Sequence record: NC_019399.1
DNA length: 64,000 nt
From: Escherichia phage vB_EcoM_ACG-C40
Reading direction: 5' to 3' (one strand)
Below the pieces are notes generated by a model. The model was not told where the DNA came from. It did not search any database and worked only from the letters and a program-made list of their open reading frames with translations. Shown here in pieces: positions 2,448-29,892 of this stretch (position 1 is its first letter; each line of letters begins with the position of its first letter). Both the position numbers and the translations under genes were made by a program.

Positions 2448-4264
2448 TACTGGCTCATCCATTCTTTACGAAGGTCAGCATTATCTCCCATGAGCATTTC
2501 AAAAAGCTCTTTCCAGTTCTCAGGAAGTTTAACAACATCATATACTGGATTTTGAATCATCTCACGATATTCAGATTTTTCCAAAGAGCCAAGTCCTTTA
2601 ATATAACGGATGCTATGTTTAGGTAGAGCATCTTTGGCACTCTCATATTCAGCGACTGTATAAAACCATTCTTGTTTTTTACCGACCTGAGCGATGATTA
2701 CAGGAGTTTTGACGAAGCGAATTCTTCCTTGTTCAAACAGTTCTGGCCAATTACTAAAAAATCCGAGCAGAGAAGGATAAATGCTTCCTAGACCATCATG
2801 GTCAGCATCAGTCATAATAGCGATATTATGATAATTCAAGTTTTCAGCTTTTTCACCGAGAACTAATCCAGTGATTGCGCAAATATCAAACAATTCTTTG
2901 TTTTTAAGCATATCAGCATATGACATACCCCAACTGTTGAGAACTTTACCGCGCAATGGATAACCACCATGAAGTTCTTTATCACGAACATCAATAAGAT
3001 ATCCGATAGCAGAATCACCCTCAGTCAAGAAAAGAGTAGTGTCAGCATCTTTACCGCAAAGATTCGCTTTAATGTGTTTATGAACCTTAGCTTTAGAAGC
3101 CTTTTTAGCTGCTTTAGTTTCTGCTGCCTTTTCTGCCGCCAATTTACGAGCCAAAGCAGCTTCAATAATCGGCATTAGAATTGCTTCATTATTTAGAATA
3201 GCACGTGAAATCTTTTTAGCATCAAGTTGAATATGACTACGGATTTCACCAAATGGAGAAGTCAAACGCTCTTTAGTTTGAGAATCAAATCGCATGTTTT
3301 TCATATCACGGACAAACATAACGATAGTCAAACATTCTTTAACGCGTGCTTTAGTCACATCAATTTTGAACTTACGTTTGATTTGTGGAATAAGGTCTTC
3401 ACAAATATCATCCATAACACAGTCAATGTGATGGCCACCATTCTTAGTGTGAATGTTATTCACATAAGTTAATTGACGAAAACCATCCGGTGAACGACCA
3501 ACCGCAATAGAGCAATTTTCTTGTTCTTGAACGATAGCATGTTCATCATATTGGCGTGCATATTTCTTAAAATTGCCCTGAACCTTTTTACCATTAAAGG
3601 TAAATTGAATATCAGGATAAACTACTGCAAGTGTCTGGAGACGATCTAGTGTAATGTCAAGATAAACTTGGGACAGCTCATTAGTTTCAAATGACATAAA
3701 ATCAGGAATGAAAGTAACACGAGTTCCTTTCCATTTTCCAGGAATATCTTCCCATGATTTATTTTCCATGCCATTTGAACAACGAACTACAATATTATTT
3801 TGACCATCACCAGTTTCACCGACAAACATCACAGAAAAAATGTTTGTCAAACTAGAACCAACACCATTCATACCGCCAGTGACACGTTCTTTATCATCAC
3901 CAAAGTTACCACCTGCTTTTGGAATAGTCCATGCAGCAACTGGACCAGGAATTTCTTCACCGGTAGGTGTTTTAACCATCGCTTGTGGAATACCGCGACC
4001 GTTATCTTCAACTGTTACCTGATTATTTTTAATGGTAACATTAATTTTATTTGCGAATTTAAACTTAGTACGAATACCTTCATCTACTGAGTTATCGATA
4101 ATTTCATCAATAAGCTTAACAAGACCAGGTACATACTGAACACTTTCCCATTTACCAAACAGAAAGCGCTCATGCATTTCATTAGCAGAAGAGCCAATGT
4201 ACATGCCACTACGCTTTTTGATATGTTCAATATCGCTCAGAATTTTAATTTCATTCTTAATCAT
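2447..4264 (-). CDS. 39: DNA topoisomerase II large subunit, fused gene 39+60 form (605 aa)
   Basis: Single ORF; C-terminal IAIMTDADHDGLGSIY...KEWMSQ is the part encoded by separate gene 60 in T4; ATG 4264 preceded by GAGGA; track start 4267 is GTG. Confidence 0.9.
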   Translation of the reverse strand: MIKNEIKILSDIEHIKKRSGMYIGSSANEMHERFLFGKWESVQYVPGLVKLIDEIIDNSVDEGIRTKFKFANKINVTIKNNQVTVEDNGRGIPQAMVKTPTGEEIPGPVAAWTIPKAGGNFGDDKERVTGGMNGVGSSLTNIFSVMFVGETGDGQNNIVVRCSNGMENKSWEDIPGKWKGTRVTFIPDFMSFETNELSQVYLDITLDRLQTLAVVYPDIQFTFNGKKVQGNFKKYARQYDEHAIVQEQENCSIAVGRSPDGFRQLTYVNNIHTKNGGHHIDCVMDDICEDLIPQIKRKFKIDVTKARVKECLTIVMFVRDMKNMRFDSQTKERLTSPFGEIRSHIQLDAKKISRAILNNEAILMPIIEAALARKLAAEKAAETKAAKKASKAKVHKHIKANLCGKDADTTLFLTEGDSAIGYLIDVRDKELHGGYPLRGKVLNSWGMSYADMLKNKELFDICAITGLVLGEKAENLNYHNIAIMTDADHDGLGSIYPSLLGFFSNWPELFEQGRIRFVKTPVIIAQVGKKQEWFYTVAEYESAKDALPKHSIRYIKGLGSLEKSEYREMIQNPVYDVVKLPENWKELFEMLMGDNADLRKEWMSQ

Positions 4265-4599: not shown

Positions 4600-4971
4600 T
4601 CACTTAAATTTAATGGCTTGAAGAAGACTAATAATTCTCAAGCGACTTCCTTCATCTTTAACTGTAAAAGAAAGAGGGTCACCAGATTTCATAGTGATAG
4701 TGCATTCAAAAGCAAAACCTTCGGGAACTTCTTCGAAGAAGTCAAATTCTTCATCATAAATTAGAACATTACTCTGAAAACTGTGAAGAATTTTTCCGTC
4801 ATTTCCAGATGCTGTACTAATCATTGTAACATTATTACCTTTCATATCTTCAACGATAAATTCGCTTGTAGATATTACAGCATTAATAGAACCATTCCTA
4901 TAAATAGCAGAAAATAGATATTTCTTTTCTTCACCTTCGCGAATGCGATATTTCTTACCGATTTTAAACAT
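4600..4971 (-). CDS. hypothetical protein (123 aa)
   Basis: ATG start, tightly packed in operon. Confidence 0.5.
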   Translation of the reverse strand: MFKIGKKYRIREGEEKKYLFSAIYRNGSINAVISTSEFIVEDMKGNNVTMISTASGNDGKILHSFQSNVLIYDEEFDFFEEVPEGFAFECTITMKSGDPLSFTVKDEGSRLRIISLLQAIKFK

Positions 4972-4973
4972 AA

Positions 4974-5156
4974 TTACCCTTTAAGTAAGTCGTAAAATCC
5001 GCCATTCACATGCTTAGGGGCAGAGACTAACCGAATAGCAATCCGATGACAATCAGGACATACATCAGTATCTCTTTCAGAAATTTTCTTGATTTTTTCG
5101 TATTCTTTTGCGCAGTCTTTTGATTGACATTTATAATCATAAAGCGGCATAATCAT
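4974..5156 (-). CDS. zinc-ribbon protein (two CxxC pairs)
   Basis: CQSKDC...CPDC motifs; ATGA overlap with upstream gene. Confidence 0.55.
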
Positions 5157-5566
5157 TCCTTAAAGTGAGCTTTCAACATCTGATACAAGGACCATGCCTG
5201 TTCATCATTTTCAATAGTAACTTTCATTACAGGGAATTTAGATTGATCAGTTATCGGTGCAGATTCTTCCTGCTCTTCAGCTGCCTGGTATGGATTTTCA
5301 ACTTCATTAAAGAATTCAGCTTCATTCGATGAAAGCCAAATAAAATCTTCATCCAAAATATCTTTACCAGAAGATAGTACTAAATTTCCAGCAAATGACA
5401 TAATTTTAATAGGACGCCCAAGAGCATCCACATCTAAAATTTTAAAAGGATGCATACCTAAACGGCGTGCATAGATTCCGTTATCAGTATGGTCTTTAAT
5501 AAAATTTTCTTGAGCTTGTTTATTTTTAAATTGATACCATTTATTAACTTCAAATTTAATAGCCAT
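5153..5566 (-). CDS. hypothetical protein (137 aa)
   Basis: ATG start; 1-nt overlap with upstream stop. Confidence 0.5.
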
Positions 5567-5781
5567 TAATAAATTTCCTTCCAGTAAGTTGTACCATCTT
5601 CAGTGATTTCACGAAATACACCGTAAATTGGTTGTTTATCCCCAACCTTTTCATACACATAAACCGAAGTCAAGTGAGTAAACTTAGCAGTGTGTTCCTT
5701 TTGAACTACTACCAAATCTGGATCGAATAACACATCTTCAAATTCGTCATTAGTGCAGTTCTGAACAATTTTACGTTTCAT
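5566..5781 (-). CDS. hypothetical protein (71 aa; size and position of T4 cef)
   Basis: ATG 5781; identity by synteny and length only. Confidence 0.45.
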
Positions 5782-19247: not shown

Positions 19248-19874
19248 TTAACCTCTATTCATAAAAGCATTAAAAATTTGGTCATCAATAGAAACATCTA
19301 CTTTAGACTGTTTTTCTGATGGTAATTCATATCCACATATTACAATTTTGTGATCAATATCAAAATACACAGAAGCAATATGATTAATGATGTTTTCAGT
19401 AAAGTCTAAATCAACATCAATATCTTTTTGACCAAAGCCCAAAGGATAAATAATGCGAGTAATTCGATTATCTTTAACAAAGATTCCACCGACATACTCT
19501 GTACTGCGTTTAAAGTCTACACGCCGACGAAATGAAAAATATTCAGGCTCTTTATGAGCTCGGCTCATAGGGCACAACGAATAACTAGAATAAGAGATGT
19601 CAAATCCTACGCCTTCAATATGAGCCAAAGTATCATGATTAAACCAATTATAATCGTACGCCAAATCCATTAGATTATAATATGTGAAAGGCACCGGATT
19701 AACATCATTGGTCACAAGCATATAATTAGCAACTGCTATAATTTCATTATTTTTAACGAATACAAACCGTGATTGATGCGAATGGCCTGGACCTGCGTTT
19801 TCACGATTAATGATATAACACTGGGCACCTTTATATTTGTACGTGTCTTTACACTTGTGCATTTGATAGAGCAT
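19248..19874 (-). CDS. hypothetical protein (61.2 position, 208 aa)
   Basis: ATG start. Confidence 0.5.
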   Translation of the reverse strand: MLYQMHKCKDTYKYKGAQCYIINRENAGPGHSHQSRFVFVKNNEIIAVANYMLVTNDVNPVPFTYYNLMDLAYDYNWFNHDTLAHIEGVGFDISYSSYSLCPMSRAHKEPEYFSFRRRVDFKRSTEYVGGIFVKDNRITRIIYPLGFGQKDIDVDLDFTENIINHIASVYFDIDHKIVICGYELPSEKQSKVDVSIDDQIFNAFMNRG

Positions 19875-20698: not shown

Positions 20699-20728
20699 AC
20701 TATACCATAGTCTTGTCAGCTTGTAAAC
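20699..20728 (-). promoter_or_regulatory. T4-type early promoter upstream of dmd
   Basis: GTTTAC, 18 bp, TATAGT; overlaps gene 41 stop. Confidence 0.55.
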
Positions 20729-22155
20729 TAAAATTTTAATTCATTTGCCAAAGCATCTAACTGAGCTCGAGTCGATTCGTTTCTTTGATAGCGATTCTGC
20801 TCAGCTTGTATCTGTTGTGAACCTGCTACCTCACTCACTTCAGTTGGAGTAGAATCTTGTTCAATTTCTACCCATTTCTGATTTCCTTTTTGAACACCCA
20901 TCAAAAACTTATTCCATTTATTCTTATCACCGTATCGTGATTTGATTTGCTTAATGAGTTGTTGTTCAGCAGCTGCTAACTCCTCGGTTTCAATGACCGC
21001 AAGCATAAAATCAGCTGTTGCTGGAAGACCGGCAGATTCTGCAATATCGCTCATGTTAACATCAGAAGAATCCCAAGCTTGTTTACCAACCTGTGCTGCA
21101 GTCCAAAGAACAGTTTCGGTTTCAACAGCAAGAGCACGTAATTCCTCTGCAATGGCTTTAACAGTTGTGTAACTATTTTCTGAGTAAACTCTAATGCGGC
21201 AAGATTTACAAATACCCAGATAGTCGACAATAATGATTGTTGGAACAAAATTCTTCTTGAGCTTTAATTCGTTTAAAAGCGATCGAAATGTATTAGCATC
21301 TGCTCCACCAGTAGGATACTGTTTAACTATTAAACGACCGAGAGTAGATTTCTCGCGCCATTTTTCCATTTTTCCTTTATACTCAGCGTAAGAAATATGC
21401 CCGTCATCAATGTCATCAAGAGAAACATCAAGCATATTAGCATCAATACGTTTAGCACAGACTTCTTCTGCCATTTCCATGGAAATGTAAAGAACATTAT
21501 GTCCGAGCTGTAAATAATCTGCCGCTAATGAACACAATCCTAATGATTTACCAACGTTAACACCAGCCATTAAAACGTTCAGTGTTCCTGTCTCAGCTCC
21601 GCCTTTAGTAATTTTGTTTAGAATTCTGAGTTTAAATGGAACTTTACGAGCTTTATTCATATAAGATAGCCAGCGTGCTTCGTAGTCATCCATCCAATCA
21701 TGACCAACGTAGCTATCAAATGAAATTGATAATGCTTGACGCATGATATCAGGAATAGCACCTACATCTGGCATTTTCTTATTTCGTTTTTCCGGAGGAA
21801 GCTCAGCATTAGTTTGAATTTCGATTATTTTAGACGTAGCATTAAACATCGCCCTTTGCTGAACATATTTTTCTGTTTCTTTTACTAACCAACTGTGGTC
21901 TTCTGGAGAATCGGCTAGTTTTGAAATAAGTGTTTTTACACCAGAATATTCTGTTTCAGTAAATGAACTATTTTCTAATGCAACATTTAACGCATTAATA
22001 GATGGAACGCTATGGTACTCATTAACATGAGATTTAATTAATTTGAACGTATTTTTAGCTGGACCACTTTCAAAATATTCTGAATCCATATATGGCCAAA
22101 CTTTTGAAAAATAAGCTTGATCAAATATGAGATGAGAAAGAATAATTTCTACCAC
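20728..22155 (-). CDS. 41: replicative DNA helicase gp41 (475 aa)
   Basis: DnaB-family motifs; GTG start at 22155 preceded by AAGGAG. Confidence 0.93.
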   Translation of the reverse strand: MVEIILSHLIFDQAYFSKVWPYMDSEYFESGPAKNTFKLIKSHVNEYHSVPSINALNVALENSSFTETEYSGVKTLISKLADSPEDHSWLVKETEKYVQQRAMFNATSKIIEIQTNAELPPEKRNKKMPDVGAIPDIMRQALSISFDSYVGHDWMDDYEARWLSYMNKARKVPFKLRILNKITKGGAETGTLNVLMAGVNVGKSLGLCSLAADYLQLGHNVLYISMEMAEEVCAKRIDANMLDVSLDDIDDGHISYAEYKGKMEKWREKSTLGRLIVKQYPTGGADANTFRSLLNELKLKKNFVPTIIIVDYLGICKSCRIRVYSENSYTTVKAIAEELRALAVETETVLWTAAQVGKQAWDSSDVNMSDIAESAGLPATADFMLAVIETEELAAAEQQLIKQIKSRYGDKNKWNKFLMGVQKGNQKWVEIEQDSTPTEVSEVAGSQQIQAEQNRYQRNESTRAQLDALANELKF

Positions 22156-22164
22156 ACTTACTCC

Positions 22165-22509
22165 TTAAAAGAATTTAAACTTTTTCTTTGACCTTTTATT
22201 AAATGCATCTTGTAGTTGCATTGTAATACATTTTTCTACATGAGGAGCTAACTCAGCTTTTCTTTCTTGGTCAAGAACAGCAAAGTCCATTACGACTTTT
22301 CCATCAACCCAATCTAATTTTGTCACATACACAATGTGTGTAGAACCATCTTCTAGTTTAATGACAATCTCCTGGATAACATTTTCCATGGCAGATTTAA
22401 TTATCTTAAGAGATTCATTAAAAAGACGTTCTTTTCTTTCTTCTTCCCCCTCCGAAGAGGGGGATTCATCGATAATTTCTAGATCTAAGTCTAAATCATC
22501 TTTATTCAT
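22165..22509 (-). CDS. 40: gp40 head vertex assembly chaperone (114 aa)
   Basis: Position between 41 and uvsX; ATG 22509 (track start 22527 is GTG). Confidence 0.65.
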   Translation of the reverse strand: MNKDDLDLDLEIIDESPSSEGEEERKERLFNESLKIIKSAMENVIQEIVIKLEDGSTHIVYVTKLDWVDGKVVMDFAVLDQERKAELAPHVEKCITMQLQDAFNKRSKKKFKFF

Positions 22510-23683
22510 TAAATTCTTCCATATCACTTAACTGTTCGAGGTCAGTTTCTAAATCAGCAGCTGATTTACTTTTACTTTCTGGAGATTTAAATTTTTCAAC
22601 CTTTGAGTTAATCAATTCATCAACTTCAGCTTCAACAATTTCATTACTATCAATAGCACCTAACTGATAAGCACGTTTAATAGCATCTCGGAATGGTTGA
22701 TGCTTAAATAAAGGACCCCAGAATGTAGTGCAGTTAGTATCTTTTGCACGCCAAGATTTTTCTTCGCGAATCATCTCGCCGGTTTCTTCGTCAAGAAATT
22801 CACGAGCATACCAACCATTCTTAGGTTTTACTACAAATCCTAATTCTAGAGCCATATCTAACAATCCAGAATAAGGATCGATACCACCGTCAAATTTAAC
22901 ATCAATAAAGAATTTACTTTTTTCTTTAACGGTACGAGATTTTTCTACATTTAGAACAAATTGATACCCCTGAAGATCAGAACCATCTTTAATCTGACGT
23001 TTACCGATAATGAATACAGTATCAGCCGAATACATTACGCCTGTACCACCTGTCATCACGGTTTTACTAAACATTTCAATTGTTTCAATTGTATGGTTAA
23101 CCGCAACACACGGAATATTTTTAATGCTAAAATAAGGAGTAACGATACGGAATAATGACTTCAGTGATTTAGCACGAGTCATATCTGCCACAGATTTTTC
23201 ATTCAAGGCATCTTCCGTTTCTTTCTTAGAAGCCATATTACCAATTGAGTCGATGAATACTATAACCTTTTCACCACGCTCAATAGCTTCAAGCTGATTC
23301 ACCATATCAATTTTCAGCTGTTCAACTGATTGAATTGGCGTATGAATTACACGTTCCGGGTCAACTCCCATGGATCGCAAATAAGCTGGAGTAATACCAA
23401 ATTCGCTATCATAGAATAGACAAACCGCGTCAGGATATTTGTTCAAATATGCCGCAACCATAGTCAAAGACATATTTGATTTAAAGTGTTTAGAAGGCCC
23501 TGCGAAAATAGTTAAACCAGACTGCATACCGCCATCAATCGCACCAGAAATAGCAATATTCAGCATTGGAATTTTTGTACGGATTACATCCTTTTCATTA
23601 AAGAATTTAGATGTAGTCAGTTCAGCAGTCATTTTAGAAGTGGAAGCTTTAATCAAACGGGATTTTAAATCTGCAATAGACAT
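22502..23683 (-). CDS. uvsX: UvsX recombinase (RecA-like, 393 aa)
   Basis: Sequence matches T4 UvsX along its length as recalled. Confidence 0.93.
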   Translation of the reverse strand: MSIADLKSRLIKASTSKMTAELTTSKFFNEKDVIRTKIPMLNIAISGAIDGGMQSGLTIFAGPSKHFKSNMSLTMVAAYLNKYPDAVCLFYDSEFGITPAYLRSMGVDPERVIHTPIQSVEQLKIDMVNQLEAIERGEKVIVFIDSIGNMASKKETEDALNEKSVADMTRAKSLKSLFRIVTPYFSIKNIPCVAVNHTIETIEMFSKTVMTGGTGVMYSADTVFIIGKRQIKDGSDLQGYQFVLNVEKSRTVKEKSKFFIDVKFDGGIDPYSGLLDMALELGFVVKPKNGWYAREFLDEETGEMIREEKSWRAKDTNCTTFWGPLFKHQPFRDAIKRAYQLGAIDSNEIVEAEVDELINSKVEKFKSPESKSKSAADLETDLEQLSDMEEFNE

Positions 23684-23760
23684 TCATTTTTTCCATAGGC
23701 ATCATTATATTTTCCTCACTGGTTAAAGATAGAGTAATTATAACACAATAAATTTAGGCA

Positions 23761-24603
23761 TTAATCAACTGCTATTGGATGAATAGCATTAAACTTATGA
23801 AATGCTTCTGATTTTTCTTTACGTGAAACGCACATGCGAAGAACCTTTAATGGCTCGTCTTCTTCACCCAACGATTTTCGTTTTTCAATATTAGAAGTTT
23901 TCCAACGAGCTTGCTCTGGAAACTCTCTATTGATTTGCTCAAGCGCTCTATTATGTTTAGAATTACTACGAATTGAACTGCACCCGCCAGGAGCTTGTGC
24001 TTTTCCAGATACAACCAGATATTTGAACAAGGCCAAATGCGGATAACCTTGATTAATTAAATTGAGAAATGCATACATATCTTCGCACAAATCAATTTTT
24101 CCATACCCAATTTGTTCTGTCGTAAGTTTTCCAAGGTCATACCATGTATTCGTGAATCCATATGAATTTTCACGATAATTACCCCAAGATGAAGTAATTT
24201 TAAAAATAGGTAGACGAGCATGGCCATGATAATACCCGCAATCCATGGCATCTTCGACGTATTGAATCAATTCATAGAACTGTTCACGAGTTAATTGATT
24301 AATTTTATCTACGCGCCGTTTATCGTCTCTCTTTCGTATTGAACTCATACGGATAGTAGTATCATCGTCAATCATCCAGATTCGTTGACCTGCATACATA
24401 TCAGTAATTGCTTTACGAGTACCGGCAATTCCATTAACATCATCAGGAATAGTTACAATTTTAGCTCTAGACCCATAGGCATCATAATAAGCTTTTTCTT
24501 CGTGTTCACGCACTACAATATGGGGTTCATAATCAGTCGGAAACATATCAAGGGCAGAAACTGCCCCGACACGCTGATAACTTGGAATTACGAATTGAAT
24601 CAT
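23761..24603 (-). CDS. putative HMC-DNA glucosyltransferase at the beta-gt locus (280 aa)
   Basis: DXD motif WMIDDDTT; unlike 351-aa T4 beta-gt; T2/T6 ba-gt-like by locus. Confidence 0.5.
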   Translation of the reverse strand: MIQFVIPSYQRVGAVSALDMFPTDYEPHIVVREHEEKAYYDAYGSRAKIVTIPDDVNGIAGTRKAITDMYAGQRIWMIDDDTTIRMSSIRKRDDKRRVDKINQLTREQFYELIQYVEDAMDCGYYHGHARLPIFKITSSWGNYRENSYGFTNTWYDLGKLTTEQIGYGKIDLCEDMYAFLNLINQGYPHLALFKYLVVSGKAQAPGGCSSIRSNSKHNRALEQINREFPEQARWKTSNIEKRKSLGEEDEPLKVLRMCVSRKEKSEAFHKFNAIHPIAVD

Positions 24604-25241
24604 TTAAGTGCCTTACATTTGTCAAAATGGTATCTTGTCATATTTGGCCCACGTCCTTTTAGTCCGCAATGCGGACATATTTTTTCTATCAAATTATGAG
24701 GTTTTCCTTTACGATTTTTAGACATCGTTTCTTTAATTATTTTAGCTTTTTCTACGCCAAAAATTTCTTCATAAGTTTTACCAGAATTTTCCTTGGCTCG
24801 ATTTATAATTCCATATGCCTGCTCATTTTTACCATACATTGGATTACCTTCGCCTTTCATTCTTTTAGAATGATCAGGACGCTTGATTCCACGAAAGGCA
24901 TTTCCGCACTTATATCTTTCTTCTGGAGATAGTTTTTTACCGTACATTCCATTTAATTTGCCTGGAAAACTTCCTCCCCATGCTTCATTCTTTAAATTAT
25001 ATGAATCCGGACAATTAGCAGCATCTAAACAAGTTAAAATAATTTCTTCAACCTGTCTAAACATTGGTCCTTCATATAATATTTCTTTATTAAAGGATTT
25101 TATTCCATATTTCTTTTTAGCATGTTGCCAAACTACACCCGAACCATCATAATTCGGGTTGTGACCATCATGACTTCCTATATACCACTTTTTAGTTTTA
25201 GGATGTTTATACTTATAAACATGTGGCACATTTACTTCCAT
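24600..25241 (-). CDS. GIY-YIG homing endonuclease (Seg-like, 213 aa)
   Basis: VYKYKHP...KWYIGSH GIY-YIG motif, NUMOD-like repeats, C-terminal CPHCG...C zinc finger. Confidence 0.75.
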   Translation of the reverse strand: MEVNVPHVYKYKHPKTKKWYIGSHDGHNPNYDGSGVVWQHAKKKYGIKSFNKEILYEGPMFRQVEEIILTCLDAANCPDSYNLKNEAWGGSFPGKLNGMYGKKLSPEERYKCGNAFRGIKRPDHSKRMKGEGNPMYGKNEQAYGIINRAKENSGKTYEEIFGVEKAKIIKETMSKNRKGKPHNLIEKICPHCGLKGRGPNMTRYHFDKCKALK

Positions 25242-25972
25242 TTTCCAGTATAATCCTTTTTAGCAATATGAGTCTCACCGGTGTTCCACCAATGGTCAAC
25301 TAAATAAAACTGATTTTCGTACACATGAAGACTTCCAACGTTCCATATAATAGAACCTGCTTTATATTGCCGCGATGGGTCGCCTGCATTCAAATCAGAT
25401 ACTAATTTATCTAGTACGTATTTTTGCCAAGCATAATCATTACGATAGCCTGCCCAGCAATCATTGCTTCTCATGCTAACAACCGCATTGACTTTCTTAT
25501 CACGAATCAGGTACTGTACTGTATTAGTACACATGAAATCTGACATACCATCTTTATTGTAGTCAAATTGCATGGATGGACGAGTATAAATCATGATACC
25601 ACGTCGAGAATCAGGATTTTGACCAAGTTCAGCTAAACACATATCATACTGGGCATAGTTATCTTCTGACCAAATAGCCCAACCATAATTCGAGTTAATT
25701 TCGCCTTTAGAAGATGCTACCTGCTGCCAAATCTTTGGTGTTTCACCTGGAATATCTTTAACAAACAAGCTCTTAGATTTATACCATTCAAGTTCGCGCT
25801 GAATGTATTCATCATTAAGAGCGCCAAAAATAAACGGTTCATCTGCTATAAATGATGCGCCAATAATTTCAATAGTTTTAACGCCAGTTTTATCAACTAC
25901 GAAATCTTTTTCTTTTAATGCAAGCCCCAAATGAAGACGGATTTCTTCAACTGTCATAGAGTCATTAATCAT
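25232..25972 (-). CDS. 42: dCMP hydroxymethylase gp42 (246 aa)
   Basis: Thymidylate-synthase-like fold; length and sequence match T4 gp42. Confidence 0.9.
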   Translation of the reverse strand: MINDSMTVEEIRLHLGLALKEKDFVVDKTGVKTIEIIGASFIADEPFIFGALNDEYIQRELEWYKSKSLFVKDIPGETPKIWQQVASSKGEINSNYGWAIWSEDNYAQYDMCLAELGQNPDSRRGIMIYTRPSMQFDYNKDGMSDFMCTNTVQYLIRDKKVNAVVSMRSNDCWAGYRNDYAWQKYVLDKLVSDLNAGDPSRQYKAGSIIWNVGSLHVYENQFYLVDHWWNTGETHIAKKDYTGKWK

Positions 25973-25979
25973 TTAAACC

Positions 25980-26129
25980 TCAATTGATGCATTCATATTT
26001 AAATTGTAACAGTAATAAACCCCACCCTATGATAAGAGTTGGAATCATAGCAGGAACTGTTACGCTATAGTATATACTTATTATAACCATCAAGATTAAA
26101 AGCAATGCTGCTATAATTTTGCTTTTCAT
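25980..26129 (-). CDS. small membrane protein (49 aa), not in the ORF track
   Basis: ATG 26129 overlaps imm stop (ATGA); AAGGA upstream; MKSKIIAALLLILMVIISIYY... Confidence 0.45.
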   Translation of the reverse strand: MKSKIIAALLLILMVIISIYYSVTVPAMIPTLIIGWGLLLLQFKYECIN

Positions 26130-26377
26130 TCCTTCTCTCTGATGATAATTACCTGATTTGGCTGCGCAGACTTTTTAGTTTCACCTGCAATTGACCAAAT
26201 AAATGTAATAAACCAACCAATAATTGACCAGTTAAACAGCAAAGATGTGAAAAAGATTCCTACTGTCGATTTTGACCCACGCATCAAAGCAATAAACCAT
26301 GGAAGCATGTATATAATAATAGCCAACACACCTGAAACTAAAACCATAAAAATTGAACCTGCTACTAAAGTTTCCAT
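26126..26377 (-). CDS. imm: superinfection immunity protein Imm (83 aa)
   Basis: Two TM helices; size and position match T4 Imm. Confidence 0.75.
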   Translation of the reverse strand: METLVAGSIFMVLVSGVLAIIIYMLPWFIALMRGSKSTVGIFFTSLLFNWSIIGWFITFIWSIAGETKKSAQPNQVIIIREKE

Positions 26378-26384
26378 ATTTTCC

Positions 26385-26765
26385 TCACTTAGTCAAATTT
26401 TTTACACATGAATTATAAGAATTCACTACATACTCCATCGGAGCATTTTTACCAGTACGCCATTGGTAATTATTGGCCCAATTAGCCCAAAGCTCGGCGC
26501 AGTAGTTTTCAATTTTTTCTTCGCGTGTAATTACATCCGAATTACGATATGCTTGAGCAGATTCATCTGGACGAATAGCTTCGTCAAAATTCGCCTGCAT
26601 TTGTTCGACTGTTTGCTTTGGAGCTTCTTTATAACACTTGACATTAGGATTATAAAATTTGCTTGAACAGTTTACAATTTTTCCTGCATCAGACTGATTT
26701 ACTACCGGTCCTTGAGCTACACAACCAGTAAGACCTAATGCAATAACCAAAATAGCGATTTTCAT
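26385..26765 (-). CDS. putative lipoprotein (126 aa)
   Basis: Signal peptide with LTGC lipobox. Confidence 0.55.
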   Translation of the reverse strand: MKIAILVIALGLTGCVAQGPVVNQSDAGKIVNCSSKFYNPNVKCYKEAPKQTVEQMQANFDEAIRPDESAQAYRNSDVITREEKIENYCAELWANWANNYQWRTGKNAPMEYVVNSYNSCVKNLTK

Positions 26766-26775
26766 AATAATTTCC

Positions 26776-27012
26776 TCAAATGCAAGTAGTAATTACTCCA
26801 GTAGTGCTTATGCAGGTATTACCCATTTGCACACCTAAAGATCCATTTGTATTCACATGAAGATTATCATCAATTTTAACTGATATTTTACCATTAGTGT
26901 GAATAACAGTGCTAGATTCAATCACAGGTTGAGTATCATTTTCAACACTAACAAATGGAACTGCTGCTAATGCAACTAAACAAACTGCTAAGCAACCCAT
27001 AACAATTTTCAT
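26776..27012 (-). CDS. small secreted protein (78 aa)
   Basis: ATG 27012 after GGAG; track start 27069 lies between promoter -35 and -10. Confidence 0.5.
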   Translation of the reverse strand: MKIVMGCLAVCLVALAAVPFVSVENDTQPVIESSTVIHTNGKISVKIDDNLHVNTNGSLGVQMGNTCISTTGVITTCI

Positions 27013-27049
27013 TTTATTCTCCAAATCCGTATCAGTAGTTGATAGTTGT

Positions 27050-27079
27050 ATAGTACCATGGAAGAACATTCTTGTAAAC
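27050..27079 (-). promoter_or_regulatory. T4-type early promoter
   Basis: GTTTAC, 18 bp, TGGTACTAT; AAAATTTTCACAAAAC upstream element. Confidence 0.65.
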
Positions 27080-27166
27080 AGTTTTGTGAAAATTTTTTAG
27101 GGAATTCTAAATGTCCAGAATCATCTGTTTTTCATAAGTATAGATTTATATTACTTGTATGAAAAA

Positions 27167-27182
27167 GGGACCCGGAGGTCCC
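27167..27182 (-). terminator. intrinsic terminator downstream of gene 43
   Basis: GGGACC-UCCG-GGUCCC followed by UUUUUC. Confidence 0.6.
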
Positions 27183-27195
27183 TAGATTTATTCTA

Positions 27196-29892
27196 TCAGC
27201 CAAACAGGAAGTCTAACGAAGCTTTTTCTTCATAGTCCATACCAGCCGATTCACACATGCCCGCAAGCGGTTTAACAAACGATTTTTGGAACAAAGTTGA
27301 GTAGTCAATCCAAGATAGTACGTCAGAACGAATTTCTTTTGGAAGTTCTGTACCCGATGGCCAAGCAATGCACTTGTCACCAAATGGATTTCCTTCACGT
27401 AATGGAAGAACCATTACTTTATTTCCATCCAAAATTGGAGCTACACCCAGACCACTAACAGCTCGACGATAAGTTAGCACACCGCGAATATGGAACGGGC
27501 ATTTAAATCCTGGCCAACCTTTATCATCATATTTCGCTATATCGTTCGCAGTTTTTACTTCAGCAATAACTTTATAGTCGAGTTGACGATATTCTTTCTC
27601 GAAGTTCTTGTAATATTCTTGGACAGACTCTTCACCTTCCTGAAGAATACGACGAATACTTTCTTCGAGAGCTTCTTGTACTGCTTTTGGTGTTGAACTC
27701 TGTTGAGTTTCCATACCCATGATTTTTAGATGCGGTTCAGCAAATCGCTTATCTTCCATATCATAAACGTTCAGAGCATAACGCTTTTTCGCTTTCCAAA
27801 ATCCACCAACACCCTTTGAACCAAGTGGAGGGCAAGAAATAGCTTCACGGTCCATATGCATCAGATGCTCGCGGTTATTCATATAATCACATAACTCACG
27901 ATATGCAACATCAATCATAGGTTCCATCTTTTTCTTACCGAACTGATTCATAAATTCAACCAAATCGTTCTGCTCTTTGAATCGGTCAAGACCAACTTTT
28001 TCAATAACTTTATCTACACAAACATATACCGAATCAGTATCACCTGCTGCGATGAAATCTTCACCATTAGTTCCGCATACTTTATTCAGATATTCATTAA
28101 TTTTACGAGCAATCCACTGAATACCAACTTGGCCGAAAATTGTGATAGCAGTAGCATTTCGCAAATCATAGTAACGAAAATGAATATTACCAAGAGCACC
28201 GTAAAGACTGTTAATAAGAATTTTACGGTTCAGCTGATTTGTGTTAGCAAGTGTAGCTGCTTTTTCACATTCTTCAATCAAACTATTGAGAACAGATTCG
28301 GTGTAATTCGATAGTTCATTTAAGAAATCATCACTGAACTTAACATATCGTTCAACTTCAGGTTTAGTTGAACAAGACCCTGCGCCTTTCATAATAATCT
28401 TTTTAATAGCTTCGGCATTCATTTCTTCAGCGAACATTTTCTTTTTCCAGTCTTTACGCTGGAAAAATACTTTAGCGATTTCCTTTGGAATGATACCTTC
28501 TTGATGCTTATCATACATCCATCCATTCGGAGAACAAGAATATTCATCACTTGGTTTAGGAGCTGTTCCTGCGATATATTCATGAATTGGATGAACTTTA
28601 AACTGACCACGAATAGTCTCAGGACTAATGTTAACCTGACGAATAATGCTAGGATATAGAGACGTCAAGTCAAAACTCATAATATATCGACGAGCAATTG
28701 GTTTAGGTTCAAACACAAATGCACCCGGAAAACTCTGTTTAACGTGCGAACCTTGTTGAGGAATAACCTTATGTTCACCTTTCAATGAGTTAAAAATAAT
28801 AGCATCCCAAGTTTTAATAGGACTCATTACACCAGAAAAAGGCATTTTAGCATAATAAGACATACTTAAAACTAGATCGATAAACCCGCGAATTTTATCA
28901 ATTGCTTGAACTGATTCTACGTCAATGATGTTATAACTAATGTATCGTTGATGATTAGTCTCACGAAGTTTATTAATAGGACCATCATACGGTAATTTAC
29001 CTTTTTTGGTTTCATGTTGAGCAACTGATTCCAAAGAGAATGACGGCAAATTAGTAAAAGCGAATTTCTTGTACAAATCTAAATAATCAAGAATAGATAC
29101 GCCATCAATAGAATAAATTTCTTTGCTACCGTACATATTTTGAATTAGTTTAGATTTTACTCGACCGATTGGAGAGAAGCGTTTCATACTACGTTCACCG
29201 AGAACCATTTTAACACGATTCATGATATACGGAACGTCAAATCCCTCAATATTCCAACCAGTAAAAATAGCAGGTCGTTTCTGTTCCCAGAGATTGATAT
29301 ATTCCATGAGCATATCACGCTCATTATCGAATGGCATATAAATTACTCGGTCAAGAATTTCTTGAGGAACTTCATCACCACCTTCACAGTCAAGCTTAGC
29401 AGCTAACTTTGCATCCCATTTTGATACTGAACCGTACATTGAATTCAAAAGGTCGAAAACATAAAAACGATCATCAATTGAATCATAATGAGTGATAGCA
29501 TCAATTTCATATTCTGCTTTCATTGGGTCAGGAAATTTATCGCCAGTAACCTCAATGTCACAGTTAGCTACACGAACAAATTTTCGGTCATAAACAATTT
29601 CTGAACCGTATGTATCACTGATATAAGCGAGTTTAAAATCGTTCATACCGAGAGCTTCGAGACCGATGTCTTCCATTCGCTTCATCCAATCTCGAGCATC
29701 TTTCATTGATTGAAATTTTTGAGGAGCGCAGTTTTTACCATAGATGTCTTTGTATTTTGACTCTTCCTTACAATGTCTAAACATAGTTGGAAGATATTCT
29801 ACTTCACGAGTACGTTCCTTTCCGTTTTCATCAATATAACGTTCAACAATGTTATTTCCGACTGTTTCAATAGAGATATAAAATTCTTTCAT
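27196..29892 (-). CDS. 43: DNA polymerase gp43 (family B, 898 aa)
   Basis: Exonuclease and polymerase motifs (YGDTDS); length identical to T4 gp43. Confidence 0.97.
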   Translation of the reverse strand: MKEFYISIETVGNNIVERYIDENGKERTREVEYLPTMFRHCKEESKYKDIYGKNCAPQKFQSMKDARDWMKRMEDIGLEALGMNDFKLAYISDTYGSEIVYDRKFVRVANCDIEVTGDKFPDPMKAEYEIDAITHYDSIDDRFYVFDLLNSMYGSVSKWDAKLAAKLDCEGGDEVPQEILDRVIYMPFDNERDMLMEYINLWEQKRPAIFTGWNIEGFDVPYIMNRVKMVLGERSMKRFSPIGRVKSKLIQNMYGSKEIYSIDGVSILDYLDLYKKFAFTNLPSFSLESVAQHETKKGKLPYDGPINKLRETNHQRYISYNIIDVESVQAIDKIRGFIDLVLSMSYYAKMPFSGVMSPIKTWDAIIFNSLKGEHKVIPQQGSHVKQSFPGAFVFEPKPIARRYIMSFDLTSLYPSIIRQVNISPETIRGQFKVHPIHEYIAGTAPKPSDEYSCSPNGWMYDKHQEGIIPKEIAKVFFQRKDWKKKMFAEEMNAEAIKKIIMKGAGSCSTKPEVERYVKFSDDFLNELSNYTESVLNSLIEECEKAATLANTNQLNRKILINSLYGALGNIHFRYYDLRNATAITIFGQVGIQWIARKINEYLNKVCGTNGEDFIAAGDTDSVYVCVDKVIEKVGLDRFKEQNDLVEFMNQFGKKKMEPMIDVAYRELCDYMNNREHLMHMDREAISCPPLGSKGVGGFWKAKKRYALNVYDMEDKRFAEPHLKIMGMETQQSSTPKAVQEALEESIRRILQEGEESVQEYYKNFEKEYRQLDYKVIAEVKTANDIAKYDDKGWPGFKCPFHIRGVLTYRRAVSGLGVAPILDGNKVMVLPLREGNPFGDKCIAWPSGTELPKEIRSDVLSWIDYSTLFQKSFVKPLAGMCESAGMDYEEKASLDFLFG

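Follow-up and report, generated by a model that had tools for sequence, protein, structure and literature searches.

The free-standing homing endonucleases of bacteriophage T4 cut DNA hundreds of base pairs (bp) from their own genes. The usual target is an essential neighbour of the endonuclease gene, which is cut, in phages lacking the endonuclease, within coding sequence that is critical for function. The break is mended from the carrier genome and the intervening DNA is co-converted (PMC2988022). The intron-encoded I-TevI cuts its homing site no more than 25 bp from the point of insertion, SegA is listed among the active enzymes, and no endonuclease is listed at the junction of gene 42 and the glucosyltransferase gene (PMC2988022). 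We analyzed 64,000 nucleotides (nt) from Escherichia phage vB_EcoM_ACG-C40 (NC_019399.1), hereafter the window, a segment of a T-even (Tequatrovirus) genome in which an intact, ATG-started open reading frame (ORF) of 213 amino acids (aa) occupies such a junction. Judged by its sequence, it is an uncharacterized further member of the Seg free-standing homing endonucleases, with predicted nuclease activity. We consider it probable that it is active, cutting gene 42 of non-carrier phages at a distance, with co-conversion.

The gene is squeezed between its neighbors, its first 10 nt being shared with the end of gene 42 and its TGA being fused with the ATG of the downstream glucosyltransferase gene as ATGA, an overlap of 4 nt. 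A GTG at codon 5 is an alternative start candidate, and since this codon reads GCG in phage PE37, the ATG is the safer start call. In T4 the order is 42, 23 bp of non-coding DNA, beta-gt, segA and uvsX, with no gene at the 42/beta-gt junction and with segA on the opposite flank of beta-gt from gene 42. An earlier note, made from the letters of the window, had described both the tight packing and the lack of a T4 gene at this point, and both descriptions agree with our alignments. The glucosyltransferase that it placed downstream is indeed present, although it is the beta-alpha-gt of T2/T6 type, to which the 351-aa beta-gt of T4 is unrelated.

From 505 Tequatrovirus records matching the region, 477 have the junction of gene 42 with beta-alpha-gt, and the endonuclease ORF was found in 76 (~15% of the 505), always at the same junction and with at least 95% identity. 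In non-carriers the stop codon of gene 42 overlaps the start of the glycosyltransferase gene (AAATGA), while the junction alignment reveals an exact insertion of 638 bp in carriers. Flanks of ~9 kb are 95-99% identical to the window in carriers and non-carriers alike, and the two groups interleave. The two genomes closest to the window, U115 (99.1/98.8/98.7% flank identity) and e11/2, do not contain the ORF. It is therefore a free-standing gene, sporadic among close relatives and precisely present or absent, as Seg-type genes are. The proposal of the earlier note that it is a likely mobile element is sustained by this distribution, since the gene has no fixed shared presence in T4 and its relatives; we regard it as a fairly ordinary element of its kind. 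Existing GenBank labels are "homing endonuclease", "site-specific intron-like DNA endonuclease" or "SegD" in some records and hypothetical protein in most; the PE37 record notes similarity to SegC. A full-text literature search returned no study characterizing an endonuclease at the 42/beta-alpha-gt junction.

The adjacent end of gene 42 differs according to the presence of the ORF. Carriers and non-carriers are 76-84% identical in the last ~245 bp of gene 42 and 95-100% identical elsewhere; window positions 25241-25484 are the only stretch of consistent difference between them, with substitutions in four clusters. On the glycosyltransferase side, no carrier-specific substitutions were found in the same alignment. 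In the protein, carriers have SNDCWAGY, GDPS, YENQF and IAKKDYTGKWK in place of SNDVVFGF, GDST, YSRHF and IVKKDYNGEWK of the non-carriers T2, T6, T4 and U115. The linkage is complete: all 76 carriers have the carrier-type allele and the T2 type occurs in none. We suggest that this is the co-inherited flank and variant target allele expected for a Seg-type enzyme, an allele that is presumably resistant. The insertion, described earlier as an ORF at the junction, can be refined accordingly in extent: the ORF stands, and the mobile unit comprises the ORF plus the ~245 bp of the divergent gene 42 3' end. Cleavage is accordingly to be expected within gene 42, and not at the junction for which the earlier note suggested a cleavage test.

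The carrier-type allele is found in ~84-89 records altogether, so that ~8-13 records have it without the endonuclease ORF. Two of the sequences devoid of the gene, T4_ev151 and BYEP01, contain most of the carrier-type allele (CWAGY...ENQF) and switch back to the non-carrier type ahead of the gene 42 stop codon. Their crossover points differ, lying between gene 42 nt 699-710 in T4_ev151 and nt 677-690 in BYEP01. The two alleles look like partial conversion tracts; such products are expected if the break lies distal to the endonuclease gene.

The same arrangement was found in a second genus. Klebsiella phages of the genus Jiaodavirus carry an equally placed gene of 70% identity in ~10 of ~130 records, and these carriers share a gene 42 3' end of their own, to which the ~120 non-carriers are only 76-81% identical. 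Between KP185 (carrier) and JD18 (non-carrier) the divergence begins at nt ~504 of gene 42, the same codon as in Tequatrovirus (nt ~502), and the contrasts of CWAG with VVFG and of NQF with RHF between carriers and non-carriers are repeated.

Our preferred model of homing runs as follows. During mixed infection with a non-carrier phage, the enzyme would bind DNA through its NUMOD3 repeats and zinc finger and make a double-strand break in gene 42 of the other phage, in or near the sequence coding for SNDVVFGF (codons ~167-176), ~205-245 bp from the site of the endonuclease gene. The break would be resected and then repaired by the phage recombination machinery with the carrier genome as template. 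Repair would copy the cleavage-resistant gene 42 end (SNDCWAGY...) together with the endonuclease gene when the tract is long enough, and short tracts would generate resistant phages without the nuclease gene. We infer cleavage itself, its position and the direction of transfer from the comparisons among genomes. The break is predicted at codons ~167-176 because the far edge of the linked tract falls there in two genera, because the densest patch of substitutions falls there too, because the non-carrier patch is nearly identical between Tequatrovirus and JD18, and because the natural recombinants have the patch without the nuclease gene. The non-carrier SNDVVFGF patch would thus be the candidate recognition or cleavage region and the carrier SNDCWAGY the putative immunity patch. 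The second divergent patch (ENQF vs SRHF, codons 219-221) was also considered as immunity determinant and is less likely, as one carrier contig (L021) has SRHF. Codons 167-176 are 3-12 codons upstream of Asp179; positions 148 and 179 of T4 gp42 are Cys and Asp, in agreement with the catalytic residues of the enzyme.

An active endonuclease that, in the manner of intron-encoded enzymes, cuts at or near the 42/glucosyltransferase junction itself, with the gene 42 tail as passenger DNA from the original donor, is the alternative that survives best, and we consider it unlikely. All eight substitutions strictly fixed between carriers and non-carriers fall within the terminal 23 bp of gene 42 (25241-25263), right at the insertion point, with the wider divergence reaching ~25484, and the insertion alters the junction sequence itself; both would suit a cut at this place. 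It is awkward, on the other hand, to derive from a junction break the T4_ev151 and BYEP01 sequences, in which the carrier allele upstream is joined to a non-carrier junction with no nuclease gene. That the divergence has its left edge on one and the same codon in both genera also argues against it, as does the habit of free-standing endonucleases, which typically cut at a distance (PMC2988022). No donor of the carrier-type gene 42 tail emerged from a search at the DNA level, in which nothing outside Tequatrovirus surpassed the non-carrier alleles in similarity. In protein sequence, gp42 of Gelderlandvirus and of Jiaodavirus agrees in the CWAG/NQF states, with an identity of only 70-75%.

The position of the gene is conserved well beyond these two genera. 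All seven further homologues that were traced (44-65% identity) lie directly downstream of a Thymidylat_synt-family gene, on contigs ranging from T4-like to 378 kb, whereas their downstream neighbors vary (T4-type beta-gt, beta-alpha-gt-like, IMPDH-like, helicase, NTP-transferase). The MRSNDVVFGF segment of gp42, at which the carrier-linked divergence sets in, aligns with the end of T4 td exon 1 (...QRSVDVFLG), after which the intron follows and near which the I-TevI homing site lies. These data allow the tentative idea, to which we give less than even chances, of a Seg lineage specialized on genes of the thymidylate synthase fold, from T4-like phages to contigs of 130-380 kb, and cutting gene 42 in the active-site segment homologous to the td/thyA intron site and the site of I-TevI and I-BmoI.

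Two other observations were made in these relatives. In the metagenomic contigs of 133-378 kb with a homologue behind their thymidylate synthase-family gene (L025/L026), a second NUMOD3-containing ORF is present at 4743-5390, ~1 kb further downstream, so that endonuclease genes may be clustered in the module for nucleotide metabolism. Klebsiella phage vB_KpnM_GF (L016, ~3990-4100) has a deletion of ~630 bp relative to KP185, which takes the final ~100 nt of gene 42 and leaves only the zinc-finger end of the endonuclease gene. We did not accept this remnant as decay of the endonuclease, considering that the essential gene 42 is truncated too and that the record is a "partial genome" which may contain an assembly artefact.

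The protein has a GIY-YIG domain at ~aa 7-90, NUMOD3-like repeats at ~aa 95-180 and a predicted CCHC zinc finger at aa 186-209. Pfam searches with the single protein gave no match to PF01541 or PF19835 at E<=0.1, and together with NCBIfam only sub-threshold scores for NUMOD3 (18 bits, cut-off 20.4) and TIGR01453 (24 bits, cut-off 56); phmmer against PDB sequences returned nothing meaningful. The family membership is therefore based on profile and structure comparisons. PHROG 314 ("homing endonuclease") matched with E 2e-31, and a search of 5.8 billion proteins revealed 70 homologues down to E 1e-4 (best E 2e-143), ~60 of them with 42-71% identity. Of those returned, 42 were aligned, 15 matching PF19835 (SegE_GIY-YIG), 7 PF01541 and 26 NUMOD3. 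Residues Y20, G22, G46, N82, C189, C192, R203, H205, F206 and C209 are invariant in this alignment, and Y9, Y31, G33, S34, G35, K44 and E65 are conserved in at least 90%. The family profile aligns with T4 SegA in hhalign (98.8% probability, E 7e-17, 37% identity over 113 columns) and with the I-TevI catalytic domain (E 0.002, the same chains as in the structure matches), pairing Y9/Y20/E65/N82 with I-TevI Y6/Y17/E75/N90.

The AlphaFold model (predicted local distance difference test score, pLDDT, of 88.3) is predicted to have the GIY-YIG alpha/beta fold, a three-stranded sheet flanked by helices. Foldseek ranked the I-TevI catalytic domain (including 1MK0/1LN0) first to third among PDB structures, with probability 0.99-1.0, template modelling (TM) scores of 0.60-0.66 normalized to the target and a root mean square deviation of ~3 A. 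Thus the earlier description of a 213-aa Seg-like GIY-YIG endonuclease is confirmed by the PHROG and SegA profile matches and by the I-TevI-like model. The C-terminal zinc finger of that description is supported as well: the motif C189-x2-C192-x12-H205-x3-C209 is invariant in the 42 homologues and forms a beta-beta-alpha unit in the model. The spacing is that of classical zinc fingers, with Cys as the last residue, and the motif presumably binds metal; the only structural matches to this region, Rad18 UBZ (probability 0.35) and the fingers of CTCF, are weak. The ratio of non-synonymous to synonymous substitution rates (dN/dS) was in the range 0.02-0.24 overall: comparison with the orthologue from Klebsiella phage gave 0.17, with that of Yersinia phage MHG19 0.11, and with the Tequatrovirus copy that diverges most (dS 0.10) 0.02. 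Such values, far below 1, indicate that the gene is under purifying selection.

Several points weigh against the reading of an active enzyme that cuts gene 42 at a distance. A linked block exchanged by ordinary homologous recombination could be distributed in the same way even if the nuclease were no longer active, and some of the 76 carrier records are GenBank/RefSeq duplicates of others. A non-carrier Gelderlandvirus also has the CWAG form of gp42, and among nine carrier contexts three distant ones have LVFG, LVLG or QILG, the other six having x-WAG, so the patch is not a universal immunity marker. The helix bearing Arg27 in I-TevI has no counterpart in the family profile; it is likewise missing from T4 SegA, an enzyme listed as active (PMC2988022). 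Unlike several T4 endonuclease genes, the ORF showed neither a dedicated middle or late promoter (no TATAAATA late promoter was found near it) nor a hairpin masking the ribosome-binding site. Sigma-70-like matches near the gene were at chance level, and RNA folding around its start, in the region of a palindrome (Table 1), was no better than in shuffled sequences (z -1.1). The ORF does not have a strong Shine-Dalgarno sequence, and it is probably read through from gene 42 transcripts.

Some of these points would suit a protein that has lost the ability to home, as a relic or by domestication. Its patchiness would be due to ordinary recombination and vertical descent of a linked block, and its role might be DNA binding, regulation or exclusion of competitors. 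The lack of a promoter of its own and of the Arg27 helix speaks for this reading, and purifying selection fits any useful function. We find it even less probable than a cut at the junction, given that the catalytic Tyr/Tyr/Glu/Asn positions are conserved across the 42 homologues, that the architecture is the same as in the active SegA, and that the gene is completely linked to a variant of its neighbor in two genera. The position of the family beside thymidylate synthase-family genes in unrelated contexts is also hard to obtain without target-directed mobility. A chance ORF in an AT-rich genome, with the absence of a strong Shine-Dalgarno sequence as sole point in favor, can be practically discarded, being refuted by the homologues, the confident structure model and the dN/dS values.

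Table 1. Features of the endonuclease locus (window positions, unless another sequence is named)
Feature	Position	Strand	Description and evidence
Seg-like free-standing homing endonuclease gene (putative)	24600..25241	-	213 aa; ORF list, PHROG 314, SegA hhalign, AlphaFold/Foldseek, family alignment, dN/dS
Gene 42, dCMP hydroxymethylase	25232..25972	-	246 aa; upstream neighbor and putative target gene; Pfam Thymidylat_synt, PHROG 160, alignment with T4 gp42
beta-glucosyl-HMC-alpha-glucosyltransferase gene (beta-alpha-gt)	23761..24603	-	280 aa; downstream neighbor; PHROG 842 (E 7e-89), Pfam TAGT
Endonuclease-linked gene 42 3' end	25242..25484	-	~245 bp, codons ~164-246; putative co-inherited (co-conversion) tract; carrier/non-carrier identity and linkage
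Densest divergent patch	25445..25484	-	26/40 nt; far edge of the tract, codons ~164-176, just upstream of Asp179; carrier/non-carrier alignment
Partial carrier-type gene 42 alleles	L002 (T4_ev151) 5397-5640; L019 (BYEP01) 2540-2788		
Perfect 9-bp palindrome	25204..25223	-	ATGTTTATA-AG-TATAAACAT; inside endonuclease codons 7-13
Gene 41	20728-22155	-	
Gene 40	22165-22527	-	
uvsX	22502-23683	-	
42.1, imm, imm.1	25980-26765	-	
Gene 43	27196-29892	-	

Further variation was noticed around the locus. In phage fPS-2 the central dinucleotide of the palindrome is inverted from AG to CT, changing Lys10 to Thr, a pattern expected from hairpin-mediated template switching. A terminator-like hairpin (GGGGCAG-TTT-CTGCCCT with a T-rich tail, window 24551-24567, minus strand) lies in the coding sequence of beta-alpha-gt, within 50 nt of its beginning; carriers and non-carriers share this hairpin, and it is an annotated terminator in fPS-2. 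An alignment of 14 phages has hypervariable spots at window 26776-27195 and 19394-19870. The former is the gap between imm.1 and gene 43, where the window has a 97-aa ORF (26776-27069) and the other aligned phages are different or empty; at the latter, the 61.2/sp region, alleles are only ~55% identical.

The slot between uvsX and gene 42 contains beta-gt and segA in T4 (L001, 3571-5456) and beta-alpha-gt in the window (23684-24603), while Gelderlandvirus STP4-a (L018) has both glucosyltransferase types in tandem. Endonuclease genes are found on either side of the glucosyltransferase slot, and breaks in uvsX and in gene 42 may be a route for exchange of the cassette. The annotation of BYEP01 (L019, 3705-5285) has, in place of a full uvsX homologue, a shortened "RecA" ORF with a "NUMOD3 motif protein" after it, and a metagenomic contig (L022, 5220-6645) has separate ORF calls for RecA_N and UvsX_C. 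These splits may be further endonuclease-associated disruptions of uvsX.

If the distal cut in gene 42 is real, free-standing and intron-encoded GIY-YIG enzymes would converge on, or share descent at, the same spot of one protein fold. Together with SegA on the uvsX side, the enzyme would bracket the glucosyltransferase cassette and promote swaps of DNA-glucosylation types between phages, which would help to explain the mosaicism of the hydroxymethylase/glucosyltransferase module, a determinant of restriction evasion in T-even phages. The best-studied phage model group gains a putative homing endonuclease that is apparently spreading at present, and carriers in phage cocktails would be expected to bias marker inheritance in co-infections. 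What is new here is the linked putative immunity and co-conversion tract, its replication in a second genus, the tie to genes of the thymidylate synthase fold and a concrete target prediction inside an essential DNA-modification gene, beside the catalytic Asp179. Public genomes already hold a natural pair of filled and empty sites (the window phage and U115) as well as apparent natural products of partial conversion.

Among the comparable systems are the equally uncharacterized positional orthologues of Jiaodavirus (e.g. the KP185 "endonuclease") and Yersinia phage MHG19, which are 65-70% identical and lie directly after gene 42; MHG19 differs in its downstream gene, a T4-type beta-gt. SegA of T4 shares with the window protein (BLASTP 32%, E 4e-9) the Seg-type GIY-YIG signature Y-x-GSG...A-x-KKYG...NF, a similar size, the NUMOD3-like middle and the free-standing condition in the same neighborhood, on the other glucosyltransferase flank. 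However, SegA lies between uvsX and beta-gt and cuts uvsX, whereas the putative target here is gene 42, and neither hhalign nor BLASTP matched the CCHC finger region to SegA. With this low identity and a different insertion site, it is not an orthologue. SegC is the best T4 paralogue in tblastn (35% identity over aa 7-138, E 2e-7), although its locus between 5.1 and 5.3 and its target are different and the similarity is limited to the N-terminal two thirds.

I-TevI of the td intron, with I-BmoI as a further example of its kind, has the same catalytic fold (Foldseek probability 1.0, TM 0.66), and its host and target gene, thymidylate synthase, is a paralogue of gene 42. It differs in being intron-encoded and in having the Arg27 helix and another DNA-binding domain, and pairwise sequence similarity is undetectable (E 0.56). 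SegG and SegF gave no similarity to the window protein above threshold in tblastn, and they have been tested biochemically and in crosses. They are nevertheless the closest mechanistic model, with intronless homing, cleavage hundreds of bp away in an adjoining essential gene and co-conversion (PMC2988022), and with marker exclusion of T2 genes 32 and 56. The 245-bp linked tract and the partial-tract recombinants described above fit this model.

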